NCBI GenBank assembly: GCA_964016885.1
Contig: OZ024742.1
Span: 68,386,001-68,450,000 of the forward strand
Length of the DNA: 64,000 nucleotides
Reading direction: 5' to 3'
Origin: Eledone cirrhosa
Taxonomy: Eukaryota
Part shown: one piece after another, positions 19,592-61,231 of the stretch
Layout: each line of letters opens with the position of its first letter
How positions within the stretch are numbered: position 1 is the first letter of the stretch
Program-made: the position numbers and the translations under genes
Notes under the pieces: generated by a model
Told to the model about the DNA's origin: nothing
Database searches by the model: none
Seen by the model: the letters and a program-made list of their open reading frames with translations, nothing else

Positions 19592-19803
19592 ATGAATGAT
19601 AACATTGAAGCGCTTCCAACCATAAGTGGAAATGGGAACGTTGAAATGAACGTCACTATGGCAACAGGTAGTAGTGACCGAGAAAAATCACACCAAAAAC
19701 GAAAGTATGGAAACACATACAGCACAAAAAATAATTGAACAAGAAAAAAACAACTTCACAAATGAACTCCACAACCACAAATCAAGCAATTGAGAACAAC
19801 AAA

Positions 19804-19834
<31 letters not shown>

Positions 19835-21492
19835 ACAGCAACCATAAAAAGTCTTTTGCCACAATAAGCAAAGAAACTTTTACAAATATTGATATTTCCA
19901 ATGCGAAGGAAATGATCAATGAAGGAAAAAAATATATTACCTTCGAGGAAAAAGGGGGATTTAAAATAACCTCTCCGCCACAAGTCCAGGCCTACACTAT
20001 ACGAAGGACTATGACTTTTCGCAGGATTTTGAACAAACAAAAAAAAAACGGCTTTCCTTACTCAAGGCGAAATTGAAATTGTCTTGAAAGAGGCAATGCC
20101 AGAAATACAATACATACAAAGGGCTAAACTGTATGGAAGCATTTCGGTGCTCTTCAAAAGTGAGGCCCTTACGAAAAAACACTCAGTGACCCCGGTCACC
20201 TCTACCACACACACCTTTCTCCCTACATACATGAGAAAAAGAACACAAAGAATAAACATCCCCAATATACCACCCAACATTAACATCTGGTGGATTCTGG
20301 CAGGGTTCTTGGAGGAAGATGAAGACACAATACTGTTGATTCAAAAATCCACAAGAAACACTTGGAATGGCACAAGCTTGAAAATGTTGGTCCAAATGAA
20401 ACCGGACAGAATTTCCAAGATATTAGAAAGGGTGCCAGTAGACGATACCAATTACATCCACATTTCGGCAGAGGGTGGGAGGCCACATTGTTTTAAATGC
20501 GCGAGCACATCGCATTTAAAGGCCTCCTGTCCCCTCTTACGAACAAACACCACCACCCCCCAAAAAATACTTTTACCAACACCAACTCCAAAACCACAAC
20601 AACAACACACAAAACAAGCAAACACTGTTCAACCACAAACAACAGAAAAAACACAAACAATTCCCCTGAAAAACCCACCCCATCCCACTCATCCAACACT
20701 ACCACAATCACACACACAAATACACCATCACCACACAACATACCTCTCCCACACGCTCCTGATGACGATTCATCACCAGACGAGGCTCTTCTCCATCCCC
20801 AAGTGACTAAAAACAAAACAAAAAAGAGACACCACAAAGCCACAAAAACAACAATCACCAACACAAACACACAACCACCAACACAAATAACAATACAAAC
20901 ACCACCACAATAACCCCCCCACCTACCAGAAAAACAAACACCAACACCACCCCAAACACAAATGCCCACCATAAAAAGAAACCTACAAAATGAACAACAA
21001 ACCCCCCGTCCCGAAAACAAAACCACGACATCACTCCAAACACAAACACCTACAACAAAACGAAAGCTCACACAAGAACAACAGACAAAAACCAACACAA
21101 CACAAGAACATTACACATACATAAACAGTAAAAACAAAACTTTAATGGAGGTCATCTCCCACGACCCTTCGGTGAAAACCGAAGGGAAAACTTTTTCGAA
21201 CTGTACAGGCAGACCTAATTTAAAGATGATTAGGGTCCCTACGGACACCTATAAGTCTTTAAAGGAAAACTTTCCTGAGGACGTGGGTAATCCTTGTGTT
21301 AAACCCATTAACCGCATCCTTTTAAAATGTTTCCCCACCCTCACCCCAGACACCCCCACCTCACTAGACACCCCATCCCCACCAAACATCTCCGTCCCCA
21401 CCCTGCCAGAAACCACCACCCTACCAAACACCCCTCCAACATCCCCATGGACATTGTGCAGCCTGGTCTCCAGGAAGCAAGGAGGTGAGTGA
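19592..21492 (+). pseudogene. Tx1 copy A ORF1 (RRM-like region, CCHC knuckle, Pro/Thr/Gln linker, conserved C-terminal block), frameshifted
   Basis: Pieces 19735-20076, 20084-20806 (CFKCASTSHLKASCP) and 20962-21492; ATG at 19592. Confidence 0.85.
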
Positions 21493-21529
21493 ATTCTTTC
21501 CTCTTCTTTTCTAACTCTTCCTCACCGAC

Positions 21530-23700: not shown

Positions 23701-23771
<71 letters not shown>
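23701..23771. repeat. (GATA)n tract between copies A and B
   Basis: Directly visible. Confidence 0.97.
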
Positions 23772-23985
23772 TTCTTTATTTACCATAAAGGCATAAAAAG
23801 AAGGGACAAATACAAAGGGGGAGTTTACATAAAACCGAGTAAAAAGGGTATAAAATGAAAATAATCGAAAACAACCTCAAAGGGGAGGGGACGTTATGGG
23901 GGTTGCACACACCCCCGATAAAGTGTGCAATCCTTTGCCCGGGGAGCACATGGAGAAGGTGCTCCCCTCTCCTTCACTTCTTTAC

Positions 23986-26900
23986 CTACAGGATGGTATA
24001 CAGAGAAGGCCCATTTACACGAGCCATTCTCGCCACTATCACCCACCTTTCATAAAACTGCCAGTGGCCAAGCACCTCTCTCTCCATTCTTATCCTTCTT
24101 CCGAAGTGATATCGGAAGAAGTAGACCAGACTATGGCCAGAGAGGAAGTTGCCTGACCTCAGACCTTTCAATCGTGTCCACCAAACAACCTCTTTCAACA
24201 TGGCTATTACGCACAGAAAGACCGCCTTTGCTTCCTTTGTGAAGAGGGGAGGCGGCTTGATTGTCATCACGGACTCGGCGGTCAATCGAATCGGCGCCAC
24301 CCGCGACAGCAGTCGTTCGGCGTAGCCCCACAGATCAGTCACGCCCGGACATTGCACCAATGCGTGCGCAACGGTTTCTTCGTGACGCACGCATCTAGGG
24401 CAAATCTTTTTCGAGGGATCCCTGCCCGGGCGCCCGTGTCTGTAGAGCTTTTCTCGAACGGGTATAGCCCCCCGGTAGCACTGCCAGGCTAGTGACTTCT
24501 GGAAGTTGTCCATTGGTCCCGGGCCGAAAGTCCTACCGAACAGGCTGGCCAGCTCGTCGTTTTCCATGTCCAGCGACTCTCCAAGGGTGTCATCGCCCCT
24601 GCTAGCCACCAGCCCTCTATAGAATGATGAGGTGGATTCTCCACCGATGGCCGGGTCCGCTTGCCAGAGAGCCCTGAGCGCCTGGGCACACTCAGTGTGC
24701 CAGTCTCCCAGTTTTCCGGATCTTTGCTTGACCCAGGACTGCAGCTCGGTGAGCGAGACGAGTCTCGGAAAGGCTCGTTTCACGAACGGAGCCCACACCG
24801 GTTGACCAGTGAGGAATACCTGTAGGTGCCGTAGCCTTAATGCGTGCCTACACATCATCAACCACGGCAACCCCAGCCCTCCTTTCGAAGGTTGTTGGCA
24901 GCAGATGGATCTGCTCACCATAGGAGGGCGCTTCTTCAAAGAAATTGAAAGAGCATGCGTTCCATGGTGGTGAGTGTTTCCTTAGGGCAAGGCACGACAG
25001 TCAGGCGGTAGTAAGTGACGGACGCTATGTAAATGTTCGCCACCTCCGCCCGACCTTTTAGGGACAGCTTACACTTGGCCCATTTCTGGGTTAGTGCAAA
25101 CACCTTGTTCGTAACCTCGCCCCAGTTCTTTTCCACCTGGAGGTCCGGTCCAAACCAGACCCCAGGCAACTTCACCGGGCCCTCCGTCCAGTGTCCGACG
25201 ACACCGTCGGGAGGCATCGGTCTGCCTCTCCACGTTCCGAGTTGCAGCCCGATGGATTTTTCCCGGTTCAGTTTCGCTCCTGACAACCTTTCGCATTCCT
25301 CCAGTAAGGTACCGATCGCCTCGATCTCCGAGTCGGTCGATACCATTACTGTTACGTCATCGGCGTAGGCCGACACCGCTTTGCTCAATCCTGGTTCCAG
25401 GGGGATACCTTGCAACAACTCCAACTTCCTCAGTAAAGGCTCGAGAGTCAATACGTACAGAAGGGAGGCGAGAGGGCACCCCTGTCGAATGGATCGTGTG
25501 ATTTCTAACGGCTTCGAAAGGTAGCCGTTCACCTTGATCCTAGAACAGATGTGGTTGCTATGTAAGGCAGTGATCCAGCCTCTGAAAACGGGACCGAACC
25601 CAACCGCCGCTAGCACCGCATCCAGGTAACCATGGTCGACCCTATCGAACGCCTTAGACTGATCCAAGTTGATCAGGGCCCCACCGAAGCCGGGTTTGTT
25701 GCCAACCCTCTCTATGATGTATCGCACGAGGTGGAGGTTGTCGTGAATGGACCTGGATGGGATAGCACATGTCTGCGCATCTCCCACCAGGCCACCCACG
25801 ACAAGCGCCAACCTCTTTGCTAACACCTTGGCCAATATCTTTAACTCTGTGTTTAGCAGGGTTATGGGCCGAAAATTATTTATACTATCCCCCTTGTTCT
25901 CGTCCTTCCTCACCAGCGAGTCTACGCCCTTGGCTACAGAACAAGGAATTCTCCCGTTCTGCTGCCAATTGCAGTAGACTGCTTCGAGGAGTTCGGAGAA
26001 GAAGACCGGCATTGCTAAATAAAGTTCGTAAGGTATACCATCGAGACCTGGAGATTTGCGTCTGCTGCATCGGCTCAGCTCATCCCCGATCTCATCAGCC
26101 GAGATTGGTCCCTCGCAGGACTCTGCCTCTTTGCTCGAGAGACGCGGTAGGCCGTCGAGGTATGGACCGAAATCCACGTCCCCGCCCGGACCCTCGCCTC
26201 CCCCGAACAATCGGGCAAAGTGCCTTTGAAAGGCCTCGCACATCTGCTTAGGCTCCCGGATCACCCGTCCATCCTCGTCTTGCAAAGACCGGATGGTGGA
26301 TCGATTTCCACTCTTAGCTTCTGTCACGCGGGCCCAGCCAACGGCTTTGGCCCCCTCATTACCTAGAGCACGTATTTTACTTCGAATGACGCAGCCTTCG
26401 TGCTTTGCATCGAAAAACTGGTTCAAGGCCGTCCTCGATGCCAGCACTCTGGCCACATCTTCGATCTTGATTGCCTCTTCTAATTTACCTGTTAATTCTT
26501 TCTCGTTCCTATTCCTATCGGCAGCTAACATCTTGCTATAACTTATTGATTCTGTTCTAATCTCTCTTTTAAGAGATGCCCACCATCGGTTGTTGACGAT
26601 TGCACCCGTCAACCTCTCCTTAACTAATCTGCTAATCCGGTTTCTGTAAGTCTCTTTTGCCGGTAAAGACAAATTAAGTTTCCAGTAACCGGGACCCTGT
26701 CAATGTGTTTTCTCGAGATTGACTACGCAGGTCACTAATTTGTGATCTGTATAGCCAACCGTGAGCATTTCTGGACAGCTTAATATGTCCCTATCCTTAC
26801 TTCTAACTAAGAATCTATCTAAGTACGATCTAGATTGACCACTATGGTTCGTCCAAGTCCAGGTTGGCACAGTTGGAAAATCTAGTCGATATCTATCGAC

Positions 26901-27422
26901 CAAGTTAAAACGGTCGAGTAACCCCTTGAGGCTGTTACACCCCGCTCTATTAGGACATGCTCCTGCATAGTCCCAACGTGCATCTAGGATGTCATTCCAA
27001 TCCCCCGCTAGAAGCAGGGAACGCGACGTTCCCAGAAAAGTCTCCAGACGCTGGAAGAAGTCGGGTCGTTCAGCTCCGAAAGGAGAGTAGACGGCGACCA
27101 GTCTCAAGGCCGCACCTTCACTACTGCCAACGTCTAGCACCAGCAAACGACCTTCCGAGTCCAAGTGAACAACCTGTACGGCGAGACCCAGGTGTTTTTC
27201 CAGCAGTACGACAACCCCACCCCCACCTCCAGGTTGACAGAGAGATGCATGCACCTCAAAGTCATCGAAGGTGGGGGCCAGCTGCCGCACGACGCTGATC
27301 CGAGTCTCATAGATAACCATTACATTTATACCACGTGACCTGAGGTCATTTAGAAGCTTTGCTTGCTTCCAAGTTGAGCCCAGGCCACGTGCATTCAAAC
27401 ATCCTACTCTTAACACATCCAT
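23986..27422 (-). pseudogene. Tx1 copy B ORF2 (APE-RT-CCHC); one nonsense codon (26700) and one frameshift (about 24937)
   Basis: ORF pieces 26700-27422, 24936-26672 (YADD) and 23986-24939 (CPRC...ETVAHALVQC). Confidence 0.95.
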
Positions 27423-29441
27423 GTGGGCGGCAAAGCCAAAGGAGAGTGTAGAGACCTACCTTTCTGCTTCCCAGGGTTCGGGTCGCACGACTTCCATGGG
27501 GTCGGGGGTGTTGGGTGAAGGGTGTCTTGTGGTGGTGTAGGGTCGTCAGTGTGTGGTGGGGTTGGGGTGTTTGGAGTTGTGTTGGGGAGGGGAAGGGGAG
27601 GGGGAAAGCTTTTTAGGAGGACGCGGTTTATGGGTTTGACAGAGGGTGGTCCTACGTCCTCCTTAAAATCCTTTTTTAGTTTTTGGTAGAGGTTCATTGG
27701 GATCTTTATTAATTTTAAATGTGGGTAGTTTTCTGAAGAAACAAAGTTTACCCCTTCGGTTTGTACCGAAGGGTTATTGTTTATGAGTTCATTTAATTTA
27801 TTATTGTTTCTGTTGTGTAAGTATAGTGTAATGTCTTTTTTTCGGATGGTGTGAGTGTTTCGAAGAGGGGAGGGGCAGGTTTGGTTTTGTTTGTTGCTGG
27901 AGGGGTGTTTTGTGTTTTGTTGGATTGTGTTGACATTTGGGTAGGGGTTGTTTGGCCTTGTGTGTTTTGCACATGTTTTCTTTTTTTCCTTTTAATCTGT
28001 CTGAAGGACTCCGTTTCTTCCTCCGAATTCGTTGGGTTATCTTCAGTGTTGGAGGGAAGAGGTATGTTTGCTGGTAATGTTTCCGTGTTGGTTTTCTTTG
28101 TGGGGGAGATGGATGTCACTATGTTAGACTGTGTTGTGTGTTGTGGCTGCGGTGGTTGTGTTGTTTTATTGAGTGAGGGGTTGGGTGGGACTGTGTTTTG
28201 TTTTTGGGTAATGTGTTGTGTCTGTTTGTGTTGTGGTGGTGGTGTAGTTTTACTGAGGGACAGGTTGGGTGGGACTGAGTTTTGTTTTTGGGTAATGTGT
28301 TGTGTCTGTTTGTGCTGTGGTGGTGGTGTAGTTTTACTGAGGGACGGGTTGGGTGGGACTGAGTTTTGTTGTTTGTTTATCTGTTGTGGTGGTGGTGAAG
28401 CTGGTGTTCGTAGCAGGGTTTTCTTCTTGTTGAGTTGGGGACAAGCCGCCTTCAGGTGCCCTCTGCCTACACAGATATCACAGGACGGCATTCTCCCCTC
28501 CACGCTAATGTTTATATACCCGTGGCCCTCTAATAGGATTCTGTCGGGTATTTGGGCAATGCGTTCAGGCTTCATTTGCACTACAAGTTCTATACCTGTT
28601 CCACTGAACGCATTGCCTGTGGTTTTCCCAATGGAAATCACGTTGTCATTCGCTGGATCGATGAAGCCAGCTATGAGCCAGCAGTAGTCCACATCTGGCA
28701 TCATCGCATCCAGCCATATGCGCTGAGTTCTTTTACCCATATAAGATGGATAAAAGGTAAAATTTGTCGAACGAATCGGCGACAAAGCATATTTTTTTGC
28801 CGCTGATTCGTTCTTCATAATAATCGCTAGGCTTCCATACAGTCTGTCTCTTCTTATGAAAGTGGTTTCATTAATTACTTCTGTAAGTACTGCTTTAATT
28901 TCTGCTTGTGTTGGTTGTTGAGGTTATTTTGAGATGTTGTTGATGGTACGGAAAACGACCGTCCGACTTTCAATATCTTTGGTGAGTTCTTGAGACATTT
29001 TTACCGATAAGGTTCCATTTTCCCCTTGAGTTATGTATTGTTTGGCGTTTTTTATTCTTTGTGCCACATCTGAAATATTTTCAGGTATATATGTTAAAGA
29101 TTTCTTTGTTGTTTGTGCAAATGAAATATTATTGGTGCTGACTTTGTCGTCTGCTTTGCTTTCTGTTATGATGTTGTTTTCAAATGTTATTTTTGTGTTT
29201 GTTGTGTCTTTGTTTGTGGTATTAATATTGTCATGCAATTCTTTCAAATTTTTTTTGTTGTTGGAATCAATCTCCAGATTTGTGTTTTCGTAATTTTTCT
29301 CCGCACATTCGTCTGTTTTTATTTTATTTTTCTTTCCTTCTCTATGACGTTAGTTGGGAAGGAAGCGGGGACTAAAGCGTGCGAGCTTACAACTCTTACC
29401 GCTGTCCTCCCACCACTATTTTCGTTAGCTTCGTTTAACAT
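27410..29441 (-). pseudogene. Tx1 copy B ORF1, frameshifted; contains an 84-bp tandem repeat (about 3 copies, 28130-28380)
   Basis: ATG at 29441 (MLNEANENSGGRTAVR); CDICVGRGHLKAACP knuckle; 28-aa repeat QKQNSVPPNxSLSKTTPPPQHKQTQHIT. Confidence 0.85.
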
Positions 29442-29677
29442 TTCTACCAGACGATTGAAATTTTATGCCACAAAATTTTTAAAAACAGGTTTTTCACCCC
29501 TGGGAGGGGCGAAGATGAGCTGACCCACCGCCTGACAGTTCAGACGGGGGGTCAAGCTACACAATAGTATCAAAATTAAAATTGAACTTACAAAATTTCC
29601 GCAATAAATTGGAACAAAACTTCTGCGCGAAGTGAATTACGTCTACGCTGTAGAACAGACGACAGCTAGATTTATAT

Positions 29678-29820
<143 letters not shown>

Positions 29821-42410: not shown

Positions 42411-45400
42411 TGTTTCTTTATTAGCCACAGGGGCACAAAAGAAGGGGACAAATACAAAGGGGGAAGTTTACATACAATAAAAACGTGTAAAATGTTATCA
42501 CAAATGTAATTTAAAAAGTTAGTCGATTTTCCCCAATAGAGAGAGACAGTTTATATGGGTAACACATACCCCCGAAAAAATGTGCAACCCTCATCTCCAG
42601 GAGTACGAAGAGTTTGTATTCCTTTTCTCTCCTCCTCCTTTTCCTCAACCTACAGACTGTTATAGAGAGAAGGCCCATTGACTCGGGCCATTCTCGCCAC
42701 TTTCACCAACCTTTCATAAAACTTGCTGGGGTACAGCACCTCTCTCTCCATCCTGATTCTTTTTCCAAAGTGGTATTTGAAAAAAAGAATCAGTTGTTGG
42801 CCGGAGAGAAAGGTGTCTGACCTCAGCCCTTTCAACCTTGTCCACCATACAACCCCTTTCGCCATAGCTATCACACAAAGGAAAACCGCCTCTCCTTCGT
42901 TTTTGAAGGAGGGTGGCGGTTTGATCATGACAATGGACTCGGTGGTCAACCGGATTGGTCCCACCCGCGACAATAGTCGTTCTACATAGCCCCACAGGTC
43001 AGTGACGCCCGGTCAGTGTATGAATGCGTGCGCGACGGTTTCTTCGTCTCGCACGCACCTCGGACAGATCTTTTTTGCAGGGTCCCTGCCCGGGCACCCA
43101 TGTCTGTAGAGCTTGTCTCGAACTGGTTGAGCTCCTCGGTAGCACTGCCAGGCCAGGAACTTTTGGAAGTTGTCCATCGGTTCCGGGCGGAAGGTCCTAC
43201 CGAACAGACAGGCCAGTTCATCTTCCTCTACGCCTAGAGTTTCACCGAGCGCGTCGTCGCACTTGCTGCGGATCAACCCTCTATAGAATGACGAAGTGGA
43301 GTCTCCACTGATCGGCGGGTCCGCCTGCCAGAGGGCTGTGAGCGCCTGAGCACATTCGATGTGCCAGTCGCCCATTTTCCTCGGTCTTTGCTTGACCCAG
43401 GACTGCAGCTCGGTCAGCGAGACGAGTCGTGGGAAGGCTCGCCTCACGAACGGGGCCCACACCGGTTGTCCGGTGAGGAATACGTAGAGATGCCGCAGCC
43501 TGAGCGCGTGTTTGCGCATCGTCAACCACGGCATCCCCAGCCCTCCGTTAGAAGGGTGTTGGCAGCAGATGGATCTTCTCACCAAAGGAGCCCGCCTCTT
43601 CCAAAGGAATTGGAAGAGCGCGCGCTCCATTTTGGCGAGCGTTTTGGCTGGACAAGGCACGACGGTCAAGCGGTCGTAGATGGCGGACGCTATAAAAGTG
43701 TTCGCCACCTCCGCTCGATCTTTCAAGGATAGTTTGCACTCGGCCCACTTCTGGGTGAGTGCAAACACCTTGGCCGTCACTTCGTTCCAGTTCTTCTCCA
43801 CCTGGAGGTCCGGACCAAACCAGACCCGAGCAGCTTTACCGGTCCTTCCGTCCAGCGTCCGACGACGCCATCGGAAGGCATCGGTTTGCCTCTCCACGAT
43901 CCGAGTTGCAAACCGATGGACTTCTCCCGGTTCAGCTTCGCTCCTGTGAAACTTTCGTATTCCTTCAGTAAGGTGCCGACTTCCTCGATTTGCGAGGTGC
44001 TCGACACCATTACTGTCCGTCGTCGGCGTTGGCCGACGCCGCTTTCCGCAGTCCCGGTTCCAGAGGGATGCCCTGCAATAGCTCCAACTTCCGCAGTAGT
44101 GGCTCGAGAGTCAGTACGTACAGAAGGGAGGAAAGAGAGAGCATCCCTGTCGAATGGATCGCGTAATATGGAACGGCTCCGAGAGGTAGCCGTTCACCTT
44201 GACCCTTGAGCAGATGTTGCTGTTGTGCATTGCAGCAATCCAGCCCCTGAACACGGGTCCGAAGCCTGCCACCTTGAGCACCGCATCCAGGTAACGATGG
44301 TCAACCCTATCGAAAGCCTTAGACTGATCCAAGTTGATCAGGACCCCACCGAAGCCGGGTTTACTCCCTACCCTCTCTATGATGTATCGCATGAGGTGGA
44401 GGTTGTCGTGTATGGACCTGGTCGGGATTGCGCATATTTGCGGTTCTCCCACCAGGTTCTCGACGATAAGCGCCAGCCTCTTTGCCAACACCTTGGCCAA
44501 AATCTGTAACTCTGTGTTTAGCAGAGTTATGGGCCGGAAGTTGCCTATGTCATCCCCCTTATACTCGTCCTTCCTGATTAGTGTGACCACGCCCCCGGTT
44601 ACAGAACTGGGAATTCTCCCGTTCTGTTGCCAGTTGCAGTAGACCGCTTCCAGGAGACCGGAGAATAAGTCCGGCATTGCTACGTAAAATTCGTAGGGTT
44701 GACCGTCGAGACCTGGAGATTTGCGTTTGCCGCATTGGCTCAGCGCGTCCCCTATCTCAGCGGCTGAAATCAGCCTTTCGCAGAACTTTGCCTCGCTGTC
44801 TGAGAGTCGCGGTAGGCCGTCGAGGTATGGAGCGAAATCCATAGCCCCTCCCGGCGCGCCGCCCCTCCCGAACAGTTGAGCAAAGTGCCGCTGAAAGGCC
44901 GCACACATCTGCTTCGGCTCACGTATCGCGCATCCGTTTTGGTCCTTCAAAGACCGAATCGTGGACTTGTTGCCACTTTTCGCCTCCGTCACTCGGGCCC
45001 AGCTAACAGCTTTGGCTCCCTCGTTTCCCAGAGCACGTATTTTGCTTCTGACAACGCACCCCTCGTGATTTGCGTCGAAGAACTGGTCCAAGGCCGTTCT
45101 CGTTGCTAGCTCGCTGGCTACGTTGCCACTTCTAATTGCCTCTTCTACTTTATCTACCAGTTCCTTCTCGGTTCTATTTCTATCTAACGCTAATTATTTA
45201 CTAAAACCTATCGAGTCTAATCTAACTGCCCTCTTGAGAGAGTACCACCATCTGTTGTTGACAATTGCCCCTGTCAAGTGCTGTTTAACTAAAGTGCTAA
45301 TCTGTCTACTGTAGGCTTTGCTTGTCGGTAATGACAAGTTCAGCTTCCAGTAGCCGGGTCCTTGTCTATGGGTTCTATCAAGGTTGGCCATGCAGGTCAC

Positions 45401-47331
45401 TAGTTTGTGATCTGAATAGGCAACCATGAACATTTGTGGACAGCTTAACATGTCCCTATCCTTATTTCTAACTAGAACCCTATCTAGGTATGATCTAGAT
45501 GTTCCGCTACGATTACTCGTTCGTGATGGTCTCCATTAGTGTTTTGTTTTCAGTGTTTATGTAAGTGTAAGTGTAATTTTCTTGTGTTGTGTTTGTTTTT
45601 GTCTGTAGTTCTTGTGTGTGCTTTCGTTTTGTTGTAGGTATTTTGTTTTCAGGAGGTGGGGGTTTTGTTTGTGATGTTTTTGTTGTTTGTGTTGGTGGTT
45701 GTATGTTCGTGGTAGTGTTTGCTGGTTTTTTGCTTTTGTGATGTCTTTTCTTTCTTTTCGAGCGATGGGGTTCTCCCTCGTTTTCACTGGGTGATGGCGA
45801 GATAGCCTCATCTGTTGTATCGTCTGTGTGATTGGGGAGGAGTATGTCTTGGGGAGCTGTTGTGTCTGTATGTGATTTTGCAGTGGTTTTAGGTGGAGTG
45901 GGGTTGGGTGGGACTGTGTTTGTTGTGGTTATTTTTGTGTGTTAGTGTTGTTGTGGTGAGGTTGGTGGTTGTGTTGTTTTGATGGGTGTCGGCAGAAGAG
46001 CCTTTTTTTTATTCATTAATTTAGGACAGGAAGCCCTCAGGTGACCCCTGCTAAAGAAATGGTAACATGAAGGCCGCCTACCCTCAACCGAAAAGTTTAT
46101 GTAGGTGAGTCCGTCCAGGAGTACACGTTGTGGGATCATAGCTATTCGCTCTGGGCTCATTTGCACCAGAACTTCAATGCTAGTCCCATTGAATACATCT
46201 CTGGGGGACTTTCCTACTGACAGTATTCTGTCTTCATCAAAATTGATGAAGCCGCACAGTATCCAACATATGTTCACCTTTGGTGTGACACTCGTGATTT
46301 TGATCTTTTGTGTCCTTTTTGCCATGTATGTAGGGAAAAGGGTGTACAGGTTGGATACAATTGGCGACACAGAGTAATTTTGGGCCGTCAATTGATCCTT
46401 CATGAGTACCGAAATACTCCCAAAAAGTTTGCTTCTTTGAATGAATACAATATCATTCATTGAATTTTTGAAAACCAGTCAATTTCTTTCTGTGACAATT
46501 GGACTGGTTTTCGGGTAGAATTGGAAACTGTCCTAAAAACTATCGTTTTGAGAGCAGTTTCCTTGCGAATTTCTACCGGAGAATTGATGCTGATAGCACC
46601 ATTTTTTTCGAAAGTGACATATCTCCTAGCGTCCTTTAAAAGTTGTTCGGCATTTGTTATGTCGAGATATATCAGTTCCTCCTTTTTTTGAACTGTCTGT
46701 ACAAAGGAGATATTTGGTTTCTTTGTGGAATTATCCGTGTTGGTGGTGTATTCATTATTGTTGTTATTGTTGTTGTTATTCTTGTTGTCACCGATGTTGA
46801 TATTATTCGTATTTTCCTTGGTGTTGTTGTTGTCTTTGATGCTGCTGTTATTGGTGTTGGCTTTATTTTTTTCTTTGTTGTTGTTAACATTGTTGTTTTT
46901 ATCATCATTATTGGTGTTGCTGTTATTTTTGTTGTCATTGAACTGTTTGGTGTCATTTGTGTTGTTTGGATATGAATTTGTTTTTGCATTTTCATTTCGT
47001 CTTTCCATCTCTATAGTATCTATTGAGAAGGAAAGGGGAGAAGACGATGTTGACTGCGAGCTTTGTAGTCTTACCGCCTCTCCACCACCATTATCGTTGG
47101 ACGCAGCGTTCATAACGTAATCAAACTTTTACAATATTTTTTCCAAGATTCGATGGAGAAAAAATTTTTCAAACTAATATTTCGCCCCTGTAGGGGCGAA
47201 AATGAGTTGACCCACCACCTGAAGGTCCAGATGGGGAGTCAAGTTACACAATAATATAAAATTTAACTGAAAACTCACGTTTTTTTCTTACATAAATTAA
47301 CGGAAACTTCTCCGCGAAGTTACACACGTCT
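42411..47331 (-). mobile_element. Tx1-clade LINE copy C; both ends present, internal deletion of about 0.93 kb
   Basis: ORF1 from ATG 47113 (CYHFFSRGHLRASCP); ORF1 end fused to the end of APE at about 45515; RT and CCHC pieces to the stop at 42650; (TATC)n on both sides. Confidence 0.94.
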
Positions 47332-47342
47332 GATAGAGAGAG

Positions 47343-47419
<77 letters not shown>
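47332..47419. repeat. (GATA)n spacer between C and D
   Basis: Directly visible. Confidence 0.97.
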
Positions 47420-50400
47420 TATTTCTTTATTTGCCACTAGGGCACAAGAGAAAGGGACAAATACACAGGGGGAGTTTACATAAATGCGAGTAAAGAAAAA
47501 AAGGAATAACAATAATAATATAATAATAGAAAGTCCTCAAAAGGGAGGGGGCGTGTTGGGGATTGCACATACCCCCGAAAAGTGTGCAACCCTTTTCGCG
47601 GGGGAAGCCCAGAGAGGAGGCGCTCCCCCTTTCCTCTTCACTTCTTCACCTACAGAACAATGTAGAGAGAAGGCCCATTTACACGAGCCATTCTCGCTTC
47701 TTTCACCCACCTTTCATAAAACTGTCTGGAGCCAAGTACTTCTCTCTCCATCCTGATCTTTCTTCCGAAGTGGTATCGGAAGAAGTAAACCAGGTGTTGG
47801 CCGGAGGGAAAGTCACCCGACCTCAGACCTTTCAGGTGCGTCCACCACACAACCTCTTTCATCATGGCTATTACGCACAGAAAGATCGCCTCTGCTTCAT
47901 TTCTGAAGGGAGGAGGCGGCTTGATGTTCACCACAGACTCGGCGACCAATCGAATCGGCGCCACACGCGACAGCAGTCGTTCGACGTAGCCCCACAGATC
48001 GGCAACGCCCGGACAGTGTACTAGTGCGTGCGCAACGGTTTCCTCGTCGCGCACGCATCTGGGACAGATCTTTTTCGCGGGATCCCTGCCCGGGCGCCCG
48101 TGTCTGTAGAACTTTTCTCGAACGGGCAGAGCCCCCCGGTAACACTGCCAGGCTAGGGACCTTTGGAAGTTGTCCATGGGTCCCGGGCCGAAAGTTCTAC
48201 CGAACAGGCTGGCCAGTTCGTCCTGCTCCATGCCTAGCGACTCTCCAAGGGTGTCGTCGCCCCTGCTAGCCACCAGCCCTCTATAGAATGTCGAGGTGGA
48301 TTCTCCACTGATAGTCGGGTCCGCTTGCCAGAGAGCCGTGAGCGCCTGGGTACACTCGGTGTGCCAGTTGCCCAGTTTTCTCGGTCTTTGCTTCACCCAG
48401 GACTGCAGCTCGGTGAGCGAGACGAGCTGTGGGAAGGCTCGCCTCACAAACGGGGCCCACACCGGCTGACCGGTGAGGAATACCTGTAGATGCCGTAGCC
48501 TCAATGCGTCCCTACGCATCAACAGCCACGGCATACCCAGCCCTCCTTTCGAAGGGTGCTGGCAGCAGATGGATCTCCTCACCATGGGAGGCCGCTTCTT
48601 CCAGAGGAACTGGAAGAGCATGCGCTCCATGATGGTGAGCGTTTCCTTAGGGCAAGGCACGACGGTCAGGCGGTAGTAGATGACGGACGCTATGTAAGCG
48701 TTCGCCACCTCCTCCCGACCTTTCAGTAATAGTTTGCACTTGGCCCACTTCTGGGTCAGCGCAAACACCCTGCTCGTCACCTCACCCCAATTCTTCTCCA
48801 CCTGGAGGTCCGGTCCGAACCAGACCCCGAGCAGCTTCACCGGGCCCTCCGTCCACCGCCCGACGACACCGTCTAACGGCATCGGTTTGCCCCTCCACGT
48901 TCCGAGTTGCAAACCGACTGACTTGTCCCGGTTCAGCCTAGCCCCCGTCAGCCTTTCGTATTCCTCCAGTAGGGTGGCGATCGCCCCGATTTCCGAGGCG
49001 TCCGCCACCATTACTGTTACGTCGTCGGCATAGGCCGAGACCGCTTTGTGCAATCCCGATTCCAGGGGTATGCCCCGCAGCAACTCCAACTTCCGCAGCA
49101 GTGGCTCGAAATCCAATACGTACAGAAAGGAGGAGAGGGGGCACCCCTGCCTGATGGACCGGGTGATTTGAAACGGCTCCGAGAGGTAGCCGTTTACTTT
49201 AACCCTAGAGCAGACATTGCCACTGTGCATGGCAGAAATCCAGCCCCTGAAAACGGGTCCGAAGCCCGCCGCCGCTAGCACCGCATCCAGGTAACCATGG
49301 TCGACCCTATCGAACGCCTTAGATTGATCCAAGTTGATCAGGGCCCCACCAAAGCCGGGTTCGTTCCCAACCCTCTCTACGATGTATCGCATGAGGTGGA
49401 GGTTGTCGTGAATGGACCTGGACGGGATAGCGCATGTCTGCGCGTCTCCCACCAAGCCACCCACCACAAGCGCCAACCTCTTCGCCAACACCTTGGCCAA
49501 AATCTGTAACTCTGCATTCAGCAGAGTTATGGGCCTAAAGTTACTTAAGTCGTCCCCCTTGCTCTCGTCCTTCCTCACTAGCGTGACTACGCCCTTGGTC
49601 ACAGAACAGGGAATTCTCCCGTTCTGTTGCCAGTTGCAATAGACAGCCTCGAGGAGTTCTCTAAATAAAGTTCGTATGATAGACCATTGAGACCCGGAGA
49701 TTTGCGTCTGCTGCATTGGCTGAGCGCTTACTCGATTTCAGTGGCTGTGATTGGCCTTTCGCAGCACTCCGCTTCGCCGCTCGAAAGACGTGGTAGACCG
49801 TCGATGTATGGACCGAAGTCCACATCCCCGTCCGGCCCCCCGCCCCCTCCGAACAGTCGAGCAAAGTGCCTTTGAAAGGCCTCGCACATCCGCTCAGGTT
49901 CAAGGATCACCCGTCCATCCTGGTCTCGCAAAGACCGAATGGTGGATTTAATCCCACTCTTGGCTTCTGTCACGCGGGCCCAGCTAACAGCTTTGGTCCC
50001 CTCGTTTCCTAAAGCACGTATTTTACTTCGGACAACGCAGCCTTCGTGCTTCGCGTCAAAGAACTGGCTCAACGCCGTTCTCGACGCTAACACTCTGGCC
50101 ACGTCTCCGCTCCTAATCGCCTCTTCTAGTTTATCTGTTAACTCCCTTTCCCTCCTATTTCTATTCGCCGCTAGTTCCTTACTGTAACCTATCGAACTTA
50201 CTCTAATCTCTCTCTTTAGAGATACCCACCACCTGCTGTTGACGATCGCTCCCGTCAACCGCATCTTAACTAAGCTACTAATCCGGTTCCTGTAAGCTTC
50301 CTTTGCCGGCAAGGACAAGTTCATCTTCCAGTAACCGGGACCCTGTCTATGCGTTCTATCAAGGTTGACCACGCATGTCACTAATTTGTGATCTGAATAG

Positions 50401-53278
50401 CCAACGATGAGCAATCTGGACAACTAAATACGTCCCTATCCTTACTCCTAACCAAAAACCTATCTAGGTACGATCTAGATTGACCACTGCGGTTTGCCCA
50501 GGTCCAGGTTGGCACAGTTGGAAAATCTAGTCGAAATCTATCGACCAGGTCGAATCGATCGAGTAACCCCTTGAGGCTGCTACACGCCCCTCTATTGGGA
50601 CATGCCCCTGCATAGTCCCAACGCGCATCTAGGATTCCATTCCAGTCCCCCACTAAAAGCAGGGAACGCGACGTTCCTACAAAAGTCTCCAGACGCTGGA
50701 AGAAGTCGGCTCTTTCAGCCCCGAAGGGGGCATAAAGACCGACCAGTCTGAAAGCCCCGCCTTCACCGCCTCCGACGTCCAGCACCAGTAATCGACCCCC
50801 CGGGTCCGAGTGAACAATCTGTACGTCGAGAGCCAGACGTTTATCCAGCAGTATGGCAACCCCACCCCCGCCTCCGGGTTGACAGAGAGATGCGTGCATC
50901 TCAAAGTCATCGAAGGCGGGAGCCAGCTGTCGCACGCTGCTGATCCGACTCTCGCAAACAACCATCACATCTATACTTCGTGACCTGAGGTCACTTAGAA
51001 GCTTTGCTTGCTTCCAAGCTGAGCCCAGGCCACGCGCATTCAAACAGCCAACTCTCAATTGATCTATTTTGGTGTTGAAAGTGAAGAAAGAAACCTACCT
51101 CTCCGGGTTGTGTAATTTCCATGGGGTCGGGTGTGTTGGGTGGAGGGATGTTTTGTGGTGGTGTGGGGGTATCCGAGTGTGGTGGGTTGGGGTATTTGGA
51201 GTTGTGTCAGGGATAGGGGAGGTTATGGGGAAATTTTCAAGAGGACGCGATTTAACGGTTTTAAACAGGGGGGGGGCTCACGTCCTGTTTAAATTGTTCT
51301 TTTAAGGAACGATAAAGGTCCAGAGGGACCTTTATCATTTTTAAATGGGTGAAGTTCTCTGTTGAGATAAAGTTTGGCCCTTCGGTCTGCACAAAAGGGC
51401 TATTGTTTATTAATTTAAACAGTTTTTTGTTTTCTTTATTTATATATGTGTATTGGAAAGTCTTTTTTTGTGATGCTGTCAATGTTTCGAAGGGTGGGAG
51501 GCGCAGATTTATTTTTGTTTGTCGAGGGTGGGGTGTTTTTGATTGGAGTTGGTGTTTGTGTGTGGGTTATTTGTTGTTGTGGTGTGCTGGGTGTGTGCTT
51601 TCGTTTTTTTCTTTTAACTTGTCTGAAGGCTTCTCCTCCTTCTTCTTCAGAAGTTGGGGGAAACTCTTCAGCGCTAGGTGGGAGGGACGTGGTGTCTGGT
51701 TGTTTTTTTTGCAGGAGGGGTAGATTTGTTGCTGTTTTTTTTATTATTTGTTTGGAATGTGTTTTGTGGTGGTGGTGGTGATGTTTGTGTCGTGCTTGTG
51801 GTTGGTGATGGTGGTGGTGGTGATGTTTGTGTTGTGGTTGGTGATGGTGGTGGTGATTTTTGTGTCGTGCTTGTGTTTGGTGCTGGTGGTGGTGATGTTT
51901 GTGTTGTGCTTGTGGTTGGTGGTGTCTGTATTTTGTTTGCTGTGTGTGGTACTAGTGTATTTTTGGAGGTGGGTGGTGTTGGTGTACTGTTTGTGGTGGG
52001 TGTGGGCAATAGTCCTTTTTGGGGGATACGATTCGGGCAGTTAGCCTTAACGTGTCCCCTTTCCGTGCATGAATAGCATGCTGGTCTTCTCCCCTCTACA
52101 ATTATATATATTGGGGTGAGGTCATCCAGCCAGATGCGATCCGGGATTTGCGCTATTCTTTCGGGCCTCATTTGGACTAGTAGGTCGAGGCCCATTCCCA
52201 GGAATGCATCTCCAGATGCCTTCCCCATTGACAGCACTGTGTCCTCGCCCATGTTTATGAAGCCAGCAATAGCCCACCAGAAGTCCATTGTGGGCAGCAT
52301 TGTCTATATTTTGACTCTCTGAGTTCTTCTACCCATGTAGGAGGGATAGAAACTGTATGTTGTTGATGAGAGTGGGCTTAGGGAAAGCCTCTGTGCTGTT
52401 TCCTTGTCTTTTGTTAAACCAGAAATGCTGCCATAGAGTCGGTCCTTTCGTATGAAGAGAATATTCTTCAAAAGTCTTTTAGGACCAACTCTATCTCCAT
52501 TTGGCTGGGCTGTGCTGGCTTTCTCGTGTGGTTTAGGACTGTTCTAAACAGAACAGTGTTTTCTAGTCTCGTTTTCTTGAATTCTGGGGGGGAGGGGATT
52601 AGTGGAAAATATTCCGTTCTCCCCCAAGACTATGTGCTTTTTTGCTTCTGCCAGTTTCTCTCTGGCGGCAGTTAAGTCAATAGGTGTATATATTATAGAT
52701 TTTTTTGTTGTCTGTGCGAAAGTTGTTTTTGTTGTGTTTGTGTTATTTATGTTGGTGTATTCGTTCACATTTTTTTTTCTTTGGGGTTAGACTCCATTTT
52801 TTCAAAATATTTACTTATATTTTCATTATCCGAGAGACTTGTAGTCACAGCTACTACTTCTCTTTCACCTTTGCTGGTGGGCGTGGCGCCGTGAAAAGTC
52901 GAAACGTCATCCATTCATTTTGGCAATTTCTCCGAGTTAATTTTTTTCACATTTTTTTCATTAGGGTTAGGTTCCATTTTTTCAATGTTTCTAATAATCA
53001 TTATTCTTTCAGTGGGGTGGCTTGTTGCCTCAGCTACCCGCTCTCCTTCAGTTTGTTTAGTGGGCGTGTCATCGTTACCTGTGGTAATGGCTTCCATTAC
53101 CACTAGCGTAGAGACAATTGCAAGATTTTTAGGATGAAAAATTTCACCCCAAAAGGGGTGAAATAAATTAACCCTAATGTCCGAAGACCCAGGCAAGGAT
53201 ACAGACAAACACTTACTGTTAACACGTAATATCTCCAATATTCACGGAGCCGATGTGAAGCACGTCTATGCCATCCGG
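47420..53278 (-). mobile_element. Tx1-clade LINE copy D, full length
   Basis: 5' UTR, ORF1 from ATG 53097 (CYSCTERGHVKANCP), ORF2, 3' UTR ending AATAAAGAAA-(TATC)n. Confidence 0.95.
47650..51067 (-). pseudogene. Tx1 copy D ORF2 (APE-RT-CCHC); frameshifts near 50410 and 49660-49730; start codon reads ATA
   Basis: ORF pieces 50381-51058, 49728-50423 and 47650-49716 with GDWN, YLDRFL, SDH, YADD, CPRC..H...C. Confidence 0.94.
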
Positions 53279-53279
<1 letters not shown>

Positions 53280-53360: not shown

Positions 53361-53777
53361 ATTTCTTTATTAGCCACAAGGGCACAAAAGAAGGGGACAA
53401 ATACAAATGAGGAGTTTACATACAGGTATATGAAAATAAAACTATTAATAAAATAACAAATAACAATTGAAATCCCCAATAGGGGGGAGGCGTTACACAG
53501 GGGTTGTACACACCCCGAAAAAATGTACAACCCTCATCTCCAGGAGCACCACCAAGAGTGAGTACTCCCTTCCTCTCTTCCTCTTTTTCCTCAACCTACA
53601 GGCTTATAGAGAGAGAAGGCCCAACCACTCGGGCCATCTTTGCCATATTCACCCACATTTTATAAAATTTGCTGGGGTACAGCACCTCTCTCTCCATCCT
53701 GATTCTTCTTCCAAAATGATATTTGAAAAAACGAATCAGTTGCTCGCCGGAGAGAAAGGTGTCTGACCTCAACCCTT
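53360..53777 (-). mobile_element. Tx1-clade LINE copy E, severely 5'-truncated
   Basis: Only the last about 180 nt of ORF2 plus the 3' UTR remain; closest to copy C. Confidence 0.9.
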
Positions 53778-54429
53778 GTTGGATGGAGGAAGAAACAAAT
53801 AGAGATTAAAACAGATCTTTGCATTTGTTGAAATGGGAATGGTATATCGGAAGTAACACACGTGGTATAAATAACGGAAGTGACATATGTTTAAATAACG
53901 AATGCTGTACACATAACCACAAAGGCACATGAATAGTAAAAGTTCAGAATGACTGAAAAACAAAGGAAAAGATATTTTGATTGAATCGTGACAAAATATG
54001 GCTCTGTTAATTGCTTCCTTTTCTAAATTCTTCACTAAAAGTTTCTCTTACTCGAGATTTCAATCTCTTCACATCACTAAAATGATCTTATTATATAGCA
54101 TTCGGTATTTTATATGTTCTCTGTGTCCATTATCTTGTAGACATATATAAAAATGGCTGGTATAAAGTGATGGAAAATATCATTTAAGACGCGGTTTCTG
54201 TTTACGCACAGAGCTAATCACATCACTTGTATATATTAATAATCTAGAAAGCCATAAATATCACAGCTTTCAATTTACCTTCACACTGTTCGTATATAAA
54301 TACTTAAATGCACATATACATACCCATATTTACATACAAATATTTACATACATCTAAACACACACACTGACACACACACACACACACACATACACACGTG
54401 CACATACAAACATACAAACATACATACAT

Positions 54430-57400
54430 GCAGTGCCTTGAAACAACTATGCCTGTAAGAAACTTGACACCACCTGTACCATCTAAGTCTACCTCGAATG
54501 CCGGGGAAAACACTATCGATAATAATAATAATCGAAGAAATAATAATAATAATCGAAGAAATTTGACACCACGTGCACCATCCGAGTCTACCTCGACTCT
54601 TGTGGAAAATACTATCGATAATACTATCGATACTGATAATAATCAAGAGTATAAACAATTGAAATTTTCCCTCAACGAAATCTTCCAGAGAGAAATTAAT
54701 TCATGTATAAATATCTCTCTTGCTGAACGTATTAAAACGACAATGTTTAATAAAAAAACAAATAATGAAATATTACGTGTTATTGACGAAATAGGGGATG
54801 AATATTTACGACAGATAAAAATCCCAACATTGTGGCAAATCAACGCCTGTTTATATGTCTTAGCAACGACAGTGAAGCATTATCTTGGTGATAGCAGAGA
54901 TATTAACAAGAACAGAACACCACCAAAAATACCATCATATATAACTAAAATAGAAAAAAATATTGCTGACATACGAAAAAACATAGGATATGTGACAATG
55001 CTCCTTACATGCAAACAAACACAAAAAAACCTCACTCCTCACCAACAAAGAGTGAAAAATAAAATAGAGACGATCTTCGGTAACAGTAGAAGCAGAACTC
55101 TCCAATATAAGCTGATCACCCTCAAACAAGAATTGAGAGCTGTTAGCGAAAAACGCCGATACCTGAAGAAGGTAGATGAGAAAAAAGTGCTTAATAAAAG
55201 ATTCAGACGAAACCAAACATCAGTCTATAGAGATATGAAAGGCAAAATAATAAGTGTCACTGAGGCCCCATCCCTGAAAGACATAGATTCCTTTAGGAGC
55301 AAAATATGGGGTGAAAAGAAGAATTTCAACCAAGATGCAGTGTGGCTAAGAGAAATCCGAAAGAACTATTGCTCCTACACTACAACAAAAACATACGAAA
55401 TAAGTGAGGATACCCTTGAGACTGTGATAGAAAAACTCCAAGATAAGAAAACACCAGGAAGAGACATGATTGTAGGCTACTGGTACAAAAAACTGATATT
55501 CTATCGGAGGTATCTTACTGACCTCTACCAATAAGTTCTTAAGGGAGATACACTTATACCAGAATGGTTGACATTAGCACAAACGTTACTGGTCCCCAAG
55601 AACAAAGACACCCACTTGGCAAAAAACTACCGACCCATTGCATGCCAGAACCTAATGTATAGGATGTATACAGCCTGCCTCAACCTATTCCTCCAAGATC
55701 ACTGTGAAAATAATAACATCATCACAGATGAACAAGCAGCTGGAAAGAAAAGGGTTTGGGGATGTGCTGAACAACTCCTAATCAACAAAACTGCGATGTC
55801 GGAGGTGCGACAACTTAGGAGGAATATGACTACAGTCTGGCTGGACTACAGGAAAGCTTTCGATTCTGTTCCCCACTCTTGAATGATAGAAGCCCTCCAA
55901 CTTGCTAAAGTCCCAGACATTATTGTCAGAGCCATAGAGAGGCTGTCTTCTTCTTGGGCTACTATCCTAAGGTTAAAGACAGAGAGGGAGGACTCGATTT
56001 TCACTGATAAAATAAAATATTGCAGGGGTATATTTCAGGGGGACAGTCTCTCTGTAATATTATTCATCATGTCATTAAACCCCTTGTCCTTTCTGCTCAA
56101 GAAATGTGAGGGATACATCATTGGCTCACAGGAGGACAGAAATACGAACCTAACTCATAATTTCTTTGTGGACGATCTGAAACTCTATGCTAAGAACATG
56201 AATGGGATGAAGAAAAATCTTGACCTGGTTACAACGTTCTCAAAGGATATAGGAATGGAGTTTGGCCAAGATAAATGCTCATACATGACTGTAAAGCGGG
56301 GAAAAACAACAACCCAATCTAGCAACATTGTCATCAATGGCCTAAGTGTTTCACCGATATCTGATGAGGACTGTTACAGATACCTGGGGATAGATGAGAA
56401 CATATCCTATAATGGTATCTGTAATAAAGGATGCGTAACCAGGGAATACTACACCCGATTAAGAAAGATCTGGTCATCGGAACTCTCTGTGCAAAACAAA
56501 ACAGTGGCTCACAATGTGTTAGCTGTGCCTGTCCTAACACCAACGTTTGGAATACTCAATTGGACGATGGACGAAATCCGAGCAGTTGATACTGGAACTC
56601 GAAAAATACTAAACAACACCGGAAACTTCCACATCAACAGTGACATAGACCGCCTTTACTTGAAACGTAAGCAGGGAGGCAGAGGCCTAACATCAGTCCA
56701 GACCAAATTTGAATGTCGCATCATATCTCTCCGACAACATCTACGAACCTCGAAGCGTAGGAGCCCGTTTCTCGAGCAAGTCTATCTGCATGAAACAGAT
56801 AAGATCATGAGAGTTGGGAAGGAACTCCTCGAGAGATATTCCGTGTGATAATCAAATACTCACACCCAGGGATGTCGCTCAGCAGTATCGCAGTGAATCC
56901 ATGGATGAAAAACTGCATGCCTATCAGCAAAAAATCATGTATGGATATGTTGCCAGGAAGCTCCAGAGTGAGAGTAATATAGATAAGGAAAGTAGTCTAT
57001 CTTGGACCAACAACCGCTATATTGGCTCCCATTTTCAAGGATACGTCTTTGCAATCCAGGAACAGGAGATTAGCACGAAATACCTGATTCACAAAAGAGA
57101 TAGGGATGCAGGCAAAACACCTAGATGTGATAACAAGTGCAGACTCTGCAGAACTAACATCGAGGATTTCACCCATGTCTTCAGCAGCTGTCCAAAAATG
57201 TCATCGCGGTACTATCTACCTATAAGGCATGATGTAGTGGCCAAAACACTGTACAATGCAGTTCGTAAAAAAGATAGCTCCGATAATAAACATATTAAAA
57301 ACTACAGCAATGTGGAAGACATCCATGTACATAATATGAAAGAGTACTGGTGGAATGTTCCAGTAAAAACTCCAATAAAATCCAGGCATAACAGACCAGA

Positions 57401-57938
57401 TATTATGATATGGGACAGGGAGAAGAAAGCATGCACAGTAGTGGAAATTAGCTGCCCAAAGATTAGTGAAAAGGAGAATATTTATGCAGAACTGATGAGA
57501 AATCTGCAGATACTCCAACCTGATTACACCTTCAGATTTATGCCTGTGATTATTGGGGCACTGGGATATGTTAGTAACTGCCTCAATACAAATCTTGAGA
57601 AGCTGGGCTTCACAGGAACAAAATGAACACAACTAGTTAGGAAATGACAAATACAATCCATTAATGGAACAGTAAAAATATGTAAAACATTCCCAAAATG
57701 TTGCATCTAATAACTGCATATACACATGTACAGATACAAAGCATATACACATGTACACATACAACTCAAAACATACACATCCACACATACAATAACATCC
57801 ATATCTACACATGCAGACATACATACATATCTGCTTAGTTGATGTTGTGTAAATTCCAATGAGAGAGTCTTGTGTCTATGATAGAAACCGACTCTCTCTC
57901 TATTGGGAAAAATTTGTGAAATTATAAAACCAGAAAAA
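54430..57938 (+). mobile_element. R4/Dong-clade non-LTR retrotransposon (RT plus restriction-like endonuclease), copy 1, in (CATA)n
   Basis: NYRPIAC, LDYRKAFDSVPH, GIFQGDSLS, FFVDDLKLYA, CRLC..EDFTH..SSC, RHD, RPDIMIWD...VVEISCP. Stops at 55532, 55880 and 57624, frameshift about 56846; CATA repeats on both sides. Confidence 0.93.
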
Positions 57939-60024: not shown

Positions 60025-61231
60025 CGAAGCGTAGGAGCCCGTTTCTCGAGCAAGTCTATCTGCATGAAACAGATAAGATCATGAGAGTTGGGAAGGAACT
60101 CCTCGAGAGATATTCCCTGTGTGATAATCAAAACTCACACCCAGGAATGTCGCTCAGCAGTATCGCAGTGAATCCATGGATGAAAAACTGCATGCCTATC
60201 AGCAAAAAATCATGTATGGATATGTTGCCAGAAGCTCCAGAGTGAGAGTAATATAGATAAGGAAAGTAGTCTATCTTGGACCAACAACCGCTATATTGGC
60301 TCCCACTTTGAAGGATACGCCTTTGCAATCCAGGAACAGGAGATTAGCACGAAATACCTGATTCACAAAAGAGATAGGGATGCAGGCAAAACACCTAGAT
60401 GTGATAACAAGTGCAGACTCTGCAGAACTAACATTGAGGATATCACCCATGACATCAGCAGCTGTCCAAAGATGTCATCGCAGTACTATCTAACTATGAG
60501 GCATGATGTAGTGGCCAAAACACTGTACAATGCAGTTCGTAAAAAAGATAGCCCCGATAATAAACACATTAAAAGCTACAGCAATGTGGAAGACATCCAT
60601 GTACATAATATGAAAGAGTACTGGTGGAATGTTCCAGTAAAACCCCCAATAAAATGCAGGCATAACAGACCAGATATTATGATATGGGACAGGGAGAAGA
60701 AAGCATGCACAGTAGTGTAAATTAGCTGCCGAGCAGATGCCAATATAATATCAAAGATTAGTGAAAAGGAGAACATTTATGCAGAACTGATGAGAAATCT
60801 GCAGATACTCCACCTTGATTACACCTTCAGGTTTATGCCTGTGATTATTGGGGCACTGGGATATGTTAGTAACTGCCTCAATACAATTCTTGAGAAGCTA
60901 GGCTTCACAGGAACAGAAAGAACACAACTAGTTAGGAAATTACAAGTACAATCCATTAATGGAACAGTAAAAATATGTAAGACATTCCAAAAATGTTGCA
61001 TCTAATAACTGTATATACATATACAGATGCAAAGCATATACACATGCACACATACAACTCAAAACATACACATTCACACATACAATAACATCCATATCTA
61101 CACGTGCATGCATACATACATACCTACCTAGTTGATGTTGTGTAAATTCCAATGAGAGAGTCTTGTGTCTATGTTAGAAACCGACTCTCTCTCTATTGGT
61201 AAAACTTTGTGAAATTATAAAACCAGAAGAA
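60025..61231 (+). mobile_element. R4/Dong-like copy 2, 5'-truncated, (CATA)n on both sides
   Basis: Nearly identical to 56751-57938; keeps the ADANIIS codons of the RLE that copy 1 lacks. Confidence 0.93.

Follow-up and report, generated by a model that had tools for sequence, protein, structure and literature searches.

The 5' untranslated regions (UTRs) of LINEs usually turn over too quickly for comparison. The locus studied here, a 64,000-nt stretch of Eledone cirrhosa DNA (the window), raises the question of why two hairpins recur in the 5' UTRs of several of its LINEs and what they might do there. The window includes four 5'-complete LINEs (A on the + strand; B, C and D on the - strand) plus a 3' fragment, E. 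Element A (19426-23700, +) is truncated inside the reverse transcriptase (RT), exactly at the start of the (TATC)n 3' tail of B, which has the opposite orientation (window 23660-23770). Element B (23769-29680, -), lying between (TATC)n runs, encodes an ORF1 zinc knuckle, an endonuclease, an RT and a zf-RVT domain. Element C (42411-47343, -) has broken ORFs, with an internal deletion over the end of ORF1 and the endonuclease; its 3' end consists of AATAAA and then (TATC)n, and its 5' UTR (47111-47340, -) extends from a (TATC)n run to the ORF1 ATG (47113-47111). Element D (47420-53279, -; endonuclease, RT, zf-RVT) is located head-to-tail upstream of C, the junction being (TATC)19, and E, D and C make up one head-to-tail array. 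AATAAA plus (TATC)n terminates B, C, D and E. The repeat also adjoins these elements in public contigs, tail and target being indistinguishable; its orientation at the 5' flank of A is opposite to that at B, C and D, and the arrays of the relatives described below are free of it.

The sequence and anatomy of these elements fit L1/Tx1-type LINEs, and the Tx1 label given to them by the sequence-only reading agrees with the anatomy. The ORF2 pieces matched Pfam (Exo_endo_phos, RVT_1, zf-RVT), and their closest solved relative was human L1 ORF2p (E 3e-33; R2 at 1e-18). The ORF1 zinc knuckle is CX2CX4HX4C in A, B and D, with one ligand changed in C; a CCHC-type zinc knuckle in ORF1 is a feature of the Tx1 clade. 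ORF1 gave no match against Pfam, no relatives in a protein search and no matches in scans of viral, metagenome and genome contigs; a scan with the hairpin pattern, and one of viral contigs with ORF2, were equally without matches. In the RT tree, built without reference Tx1 rows, the window elements grouped with proteins from Argonauta hians and Acanthosepion pharaonis in a 100/100 clade; since these are the nearest named proteins, the lineage is presumably cephalopod. A second LINE type at 54371-57626 (+), presumably R4/Dong-like, combines an RT with a C-terminal domain of restriction-like type (weak Pfam HSDR_N_2); a 3' fragment of the same family lies at 60184-60720 (+). Close to the 5' ends of C (47326-47331), B (29639-29644) and D (53262-53267), all on the - strand, AGACGT occurs as a possible core promoter element, and C has an upstream ATG with an immediate stop (47293-47288). 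The Tx1-clade families Kibi, Koshi and Keno share with the window elements the endonuclease-RT-zinc finger ORF2, the knuckle ORF1, the microsatellite association and the tandem copies (PMC4494074). They differ in that the flanking repeat here is (TATC)n, and the accessible part of that paper mentions no 5' UTR structure. Recently active L1-Tx1 families have been reported from Octopus vulgaris (13 families, 421 insertions; PMC13282606).

Both hairpins were found where the sequence-only reading had placed them. Hairpin 1 of C (47207-47242, -) consists of an outer stem, a 1x1 C/U mismatch and an inner stem, with a branch-point-like TTGAC (47242-47238) in the 5' arm and a CAG (47221-47219) in the 3' arm. 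Hairpin 1 of B (29521-29554, -) has its CAG at 29534-29532, 60 nt from the donor motif described below, and the decayed hairpin 1 of A (19518-19551, +) has it at 19538-19540, 92 nt from that motif. Hairpin 2 of C (47179-47202, -) carries a pyrimidine run (10/12) in its 5' arm followed by CAG/G (47190-47187), 91 nt from the donor motif; that of B (29493-29513, -) has a run of 11/12 and CAG/G at 92 nt; that of D (53141-53164, -) has lost the AG and is enclosed by a further 6-bp stem (53130-53176); and A is without hairpin 2. Weaker versions of hairpin 1 had been described for A and D: the one in A is present, but D retains an inner-stem remnant (53179-53206, -) from which the outer 5' arm is gone. 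Hairpin 1 starts ~90-125 nt inside the element 5' end. Its pattern, loosened to admit A, gave 3 matches in the window against 0.01 expected, and the hairpin 2 pattern 3 sites (6 strand matches) against 0.04. Sense-strand folding gave z values of -4.97, -6.88 and -5.59 for C, B and D (0/200 shuffles each) and of -1.33 for A (18/200 shuffles); the claimed preference for the sense strand holds for B, C and D, and not for A. The surrounding UTR, said to be barely alignable, is more similar than that, B and C agreeing at 66/91 positions upstream of the hairpins, 53/63 within the module and 31/54 downstream.

The covariation on which the structural claim had been built did not withstand shuffling, the values observed on B, C and A being reached by 104-143 of 500 shuffles. 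The alleles of C's family were read from public contigs covering its UTR (461 contigs in run X1 and a single covering contig in each of X3 and X5; X6 had none). Position 47232 in the family is C on the + strand (X1 depth 7602.5/7632.5; the covering contigs of X3 and X5 agree) and 47237 is G (X1 depth 6326.7/6381.2). The supposedly compensatory A-U pair of C is G-U in the family, and one cited G-U is C-G, the window copy carrying the minority allele at both positions; these two changes belong to this copy. The common allele at 47236 (2960/6381 of the X1 depth, 46%; also in X3 and X5) breaks a pair and shifts the fold from -19.3 to -15.9 kcal/mol, a cost of 3.4 kcal/mol. Both cited compensatory changes are located on CpG; CpG decay as the source of the apparent covariation was considered and rejected, the excess of transitions being mild (18/190 CpG vs 26/462 other C/G sites). 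The 61-nt module has 5 alleles in C's family vs 10 substitutions and 2 indels in the other ~170 nt of the UTR, and thus it is not visibly less variable. The donor motif of C (47273-47278) is free of alleles among those listed from the public contigs.

The structured element is better supported by distant relatives. The ORF2 scan of genome contigs yielded 43 overlapping loci, mostly head-to-tail arrays of the same lineage, with RTs 46-49% identical to that of B; in the tree they join the window elements and the A. hians and A. pharaonis proteins in one clade (100/100). Their UTRs comprised 64 distinct strings, of which 47 were complete and fell into 12 types (the 17 incomplete ones were excluded). 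The pattern TGACCC-N-CC..GG-N-GGGTCA, taken from the window hairpin 1, matched 26 of the 98 loci, and the matches fall where the UTRs of three types lie; these relatives repeat the outer stem, the 1x1 mismatch and the two C-G pairs of the window but have another inner stem. Hairpin 1 outlasts the alignable flanks in these UTRs. In type F4 its stem has a bulge, in type F5 the outer 5' arm is lost, and five group II types and the L056 type are without the pattern, as are all 55 more distant Tx1-like loci scanned (0/55). A covariance model from B, C and A recovered those three only (the relatives' hairpin at E 5.9, antisense, in 2/12 loci), so that the homology of the relatives' hairpin 1 rests on the fixed-arm pattern plus position.

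Within hairpin 1 the outer 8 pairs show zero double changes in 6 sequences, and position 7 is mismatched on the sense strand in 6/6 exact homologs. The next pairs inside changed between lineages from G-C to U-A and from C-G to A-U (compared by an ungapped walk, the MAFFT alignment of the inner stems being wrong). Pairing of the inner stem outside the fixed arms was reached by small fractions of shuffles in B (0.004), C (0.012), F3 (0.018) and F4 (0.002), the test being weak in A, F1 and F2 (0.07-0.09; 0.088 at most). The sense strand folds better in B, C, F3 and F4, and the antisense strand in A, F1, F2 and F5. A conserved structured 5' UTR element is supported by this recurrence and inner pairing, not by the covariation originally cited, and the idea of a two-hairpin module survives in part: the hairpins are real, but they are not one fixed unit, as the hairpin 2 pattern occurs in B, C and D only and gave 0 matches in the 98 loci. 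As judged by sequence comparison, hairpin 1 is deeply conserved in the 5' UTRs of the cephalopod LINE lineage and hairpin 2 is local; both adjoin a conserved donor motif, described below.

Some further observations were made on the relatives. Types F1 and F2 (L068 and L071 5' UTRs) carry, downstream of their hairpin 1, CCGCCATTTT, which resembles the YY2 consensus (PMC5449588) and is absent from the window UTRs. A bacterial MAG (GTDB genome; G001, L056-L098), the source of most of the 43 loci, contains 68 copies of the 3'-end motif and eukaryote-type LINE arrays, with ORFs intact on many contigs; these arrays are mis-binned host DNA, and their elements join a few bases past AATAAA, without poly(A).

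A second feature of these leaders, which the sequence-only reading had not mentioned, is a sense motif matching the 5' splice-site consensus, GTRAG[T/A]. It lies upstream of the stems in 4/4 window UTRs: GTGAGT at 47273-47278 (-) in C, with a second candidate, GTAAGA, at 47286-47291; GTAAGT at 29586-29591 (-) in B; at 19449-19454 (+) in A; and at 53211-53216 (-) in D. With 10/11 relative types (one type close to L068 was omitted) this makes 14/15, compared with a chance by shuffling of 0.05-0.21 per UTR type. The 15 types share ancestry within families and perhaps represent 4-6 independent lines. The motif lies 20-125 nt from the element 5' end and is present in 45/47 complete relative UTRs. 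In the 11 types whose donor is not enclosed by an inverted repeat of its own, the antisense strand never carries it. In the six group I relatives the longest stretch of the UTR without variation is the donor block; the other such blocks are the hairpin 1 arms and the stem around the ORF1 ATG. The L056-type UTRs have neither donor nor hairpin 1, yet their ORFs are intact. Among more distant Tx1-like loci the motif occurs upstream of ORF1 in 4/14 (those with >150 nt available), no evident enrichment. The survival of stem and donor motif across ~50% RT divergence indicates real constraint. A second donor-like motif (GTAAGT or GTGAGT) was observed right after the ORF2 stop in L056, L057, L060, L072 and others; the window 3' UTRs are without it.

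Acceptor-like signals downstream of the donor were read as lying within predicted stems in B and C, a reading formed after the data had been seen. In B and C, GT and CAG are separated by 60 nt, with a branch-like A 21 nt upstream and P(paired) 1.0; a second CAG at 91-92 nt, preceded by 10-11/12 pyrimidines, lies in hairpin 2. In group II the donor itself is enclosed by a long stem of its own (P(paired) 1.0 in 4/5 types and 0.70 in the remaining one); 175-197 nt downstream, at the base of another stem, there is an acceptor-like YAG/G in which CAG and TAG interchange. In group I, where the donor is less buried, AG after the donor occurs at 0.43 of expectation vs 0.93 for GA; the values for the window UTRs (0.63 vs 0.75) and for AG in group II (1.11) show no distinct AG depletion. 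Strong acceptor-like sites were paired at 0.77 (n=22) against 0.70 for control trinucleotides (n=96), a difference short of significance (p 0.10). Intron-less copies numbered 0 among 219 junctions from 45 UTRs, a copy number too low for a rate near 2%. The contigs of four runs contained no joint and are silent on splicing, as contigs drop rare forms and the UTR is uncovered in X6.

The reading that we tentatively favour is that the hairpins may form part of an RNA leader in which a U1 docking site is preserved while the stems hold a latent intron unspliced. They would act in cis, on the nascent RNA of a cephalopod L1/Tx1-type LINE, whose sense 5' splice-site motif would be retained for docking of U1 snRNP; docked U1 would aid transcription from the internal promoter and guard the A-rich RNA from early polyadenylation. 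Splicing at the donor would remove part of the leader in each daughter copy, and for this reason usable acceptors would have disappeared or come to lie in strong G+C stems. Hairpin 1 of B and C would hide the branch-like TTGAC and a CAG, and hairpin 2 the pyrimidine run and a CAG. From the observed motifs, with their positions and conservation, and from predicted stems, we infer folding in vivo, U1 binding and suppression of splicing. There is no YAG in hairpin 1 of the distant relatives, so acceptor hiding does not explain its deep conservation; the fixed outer-stem sequence in these acceptor-less relatives fits inverted DNA sites, a protein site on the RNA or a barrier to scanning.

Among known systems the closest to this leader appears to be the latent 5' UTR donor of human L1, with the role of U1 borrowed by analogy from foamy virus. 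Human L1 has a conserved 5' UTR donor, G98U99, ~100 nt in, which is mostly unused and was proposed to be hidden by structure or protein; there (G98U99, SpIREs) as here, the LINE belongs to the L1 group, has an internal promoter and carries a sense donor in its 5' UTR (PMC5860796). The differences are that here the predicted stems cover acceptor-like signals (B, C) or the donor (group II), that no intron-less copy was found among the junctions here, and that the sequences are unrelated. In foamy virus, U1 at the major splice donor suppresses polyadenylation, with RNA structure controlling access to a donor that, as here, lies near the RNA 5' end (PMC3694450). The LINEs have no LTR, unlike foamy virus, and a role in polyadenylation would be by inference; the donor motif in the arrays is preceded by a poly(A) signal at a distance of 50-130 nt. 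The motif was undescribed in the literature searched (Repbase, subscription journals and supplements were outside its scope). The module offers a short, mutable test bed for asking why L1-group elements retain donors whose use could destroy the promoter, and whether RNA structure or a DNA site is at work.

The strongest alternative, which we consider unlikely but deserving of weight, is that hairpin 1 is an inverted pair of DNA sites of an internal Pol II promoter (GLI/ZIC-like C2H2 zinc-finger or nuclear-receptor sites) and hairpin 2 a GC-box pair, the fold-back being partly a by-product. It is suggested by an outer stem that never covaries and by antisense strands that fold as well as sense in several families: the outer arms are fixed in primary sequence across 46-49% RT identity, types F4 and F5 damage the 5' arm yet retain a perfect motif on the other strand, and group II retains ACCCCCCTC within a different stem. 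Nuclear-receptor half-sites are one candidate identity of the arms. The common 47236 allele breaks its pair but comes closer to the GLI2 consensus GACCACCCACG (PMC5449588), and the usual arm differs from the Opa site GACCCCCCCG by one missing C (PMC5794963), both resemblances being near matches compared by eye. In human L1, a RUNX3 site explains retention of the donor (PMC5860796); as the human donor sits within that site, the DNA-site and RNA readings can, by analogy, overlap. Against DNA sites, the inter-arm spacer varies between 16 and 32 nt and has more self-complementarity than expected by chance in B, C, F3 and F4, position 7 stays mismatched on the sense strand in all six exact homologs, and the same UTRs carry stems with clear double changes, such as the one holding the ORF1 ATG in 10/11 relative types (-7.1 to -11.6 kcal/mol; absent from the window elements).

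That covarying ATG stem is also consistent with stems acting on the mature RNA, either by slowing scanning ribosomes, and with them ORF1 output, or as a recognition site for ORF1p/ORF2p with a fixed helix and 1x1 loop. We hold this to be rather unlikely, more so than the DNA sites. Individual stems of -15 to -23 kcal/mol in an A+T-rich leader would suit it, an unvarying helix with an unvarying mismatch fits recognition by a protein, and 5' UTR and ORF1 move jointly between ORF2 backbones. It leaves the conserved donor unexplained, and the outer stem is gone in D, hairpin 2 is absent from A, and the pair-breaking allele is common in C's family. On the exchange of backbones, A and C are 93% identical in ORF2 DNA and far apart in the UTR (113/164) and ORF1 core (262/409), the UTR of C being nearest to that of B; a 5' UTR-ORF1 module was therefore swapped between backbones. 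The relatives likewise have near-identical ORF2 under two unrelated UTR groups.

A further reading, in our view improbable, would make the leader a structure-gated intron of 60-92 nt, whose removal takes the stems away: the spliced, hairpin-free mRNA would produce ORF1p/ORF2p, and the folded, unspliced RNA would be the template that is copied. If true, a LINE would divide the tasks of messenger and genome between spliced and unspliced RNA in the manner of retroviruses, and different stems, over donor or acceptor, would have brought the subfamilies to the same gate. Decidedly improbable are inherited inverted repeats under no current selection, their complementarity kept by template switching: the in-window covariation is not significant, the module shows no visible reduction in variation within C's family, and hairpin 2 is confined to three close families, but no part of the B-C UTR is better conserved than the module (84% vs 73% and 57%; ORF1 core DNA 60%), and hairpin 1 persists where the UTR flanks cease to align.

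The hammerhead core, CUGANGA and GAAA at a three-way junction, occurred in none of 15 UTRs on either strand, with Rfam blank. An HDV-like fold (nested double pseudoknot, catalytic C in J4/2) was likewise found in 0 of 15 UTRs x 2 strands with our own descriptor, run with no positive control, and hairpin 1 does not start at the 5' junction as an HDV-like ribozyme would. The Rfam comparison proposed in the sequence-only reading produced no match at the gathering score or near it. Two stems flanking a conserved internal loop of 5 and 6 nt define the twister-sister-like (lantern) ribozyme (PMC11620745); this class was rejected, the loop here being 1x1. That a self-cleaving ribozyme frees the element from read-through transcripts in tandem arrays is very improbable, in spite of the head-to-tail arrays in the window and relatives and the HDV-like and twister ribozymes at 5' ends of other non-LTR elements (PMC11620745, PMC8501958), and self-cleavage by the leader is unlikely. 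With those 5' ribozymes (HDV-like, twister variant, twister-sister-like) the leader shares a structured 5' RNA, predicted here; it differs in its internal position and 1x1 loop and in being without a pseudoknot or catalytic core.

At the other end of the elements, the 3' UTRs of B, C, D and E contain a common hairpin (23899-23934, 42557-42591, 47560-47593 and 53500-53534, all -; -11 to -16 kcal/mol), a candidate recognition stem for ORF2p. It shows a C-G to U-A double change in E, and a second G/C stem was seen upstream by eye. Finally, locus L094 (3036-3199 and 9961-10137) holds a more distant Tx1-like element with an intact U1 gene upstream and, past the element's poly(A), the 3' part of U1 from ~position 37; judged from these junctions, it is a probable U1-targeting family.
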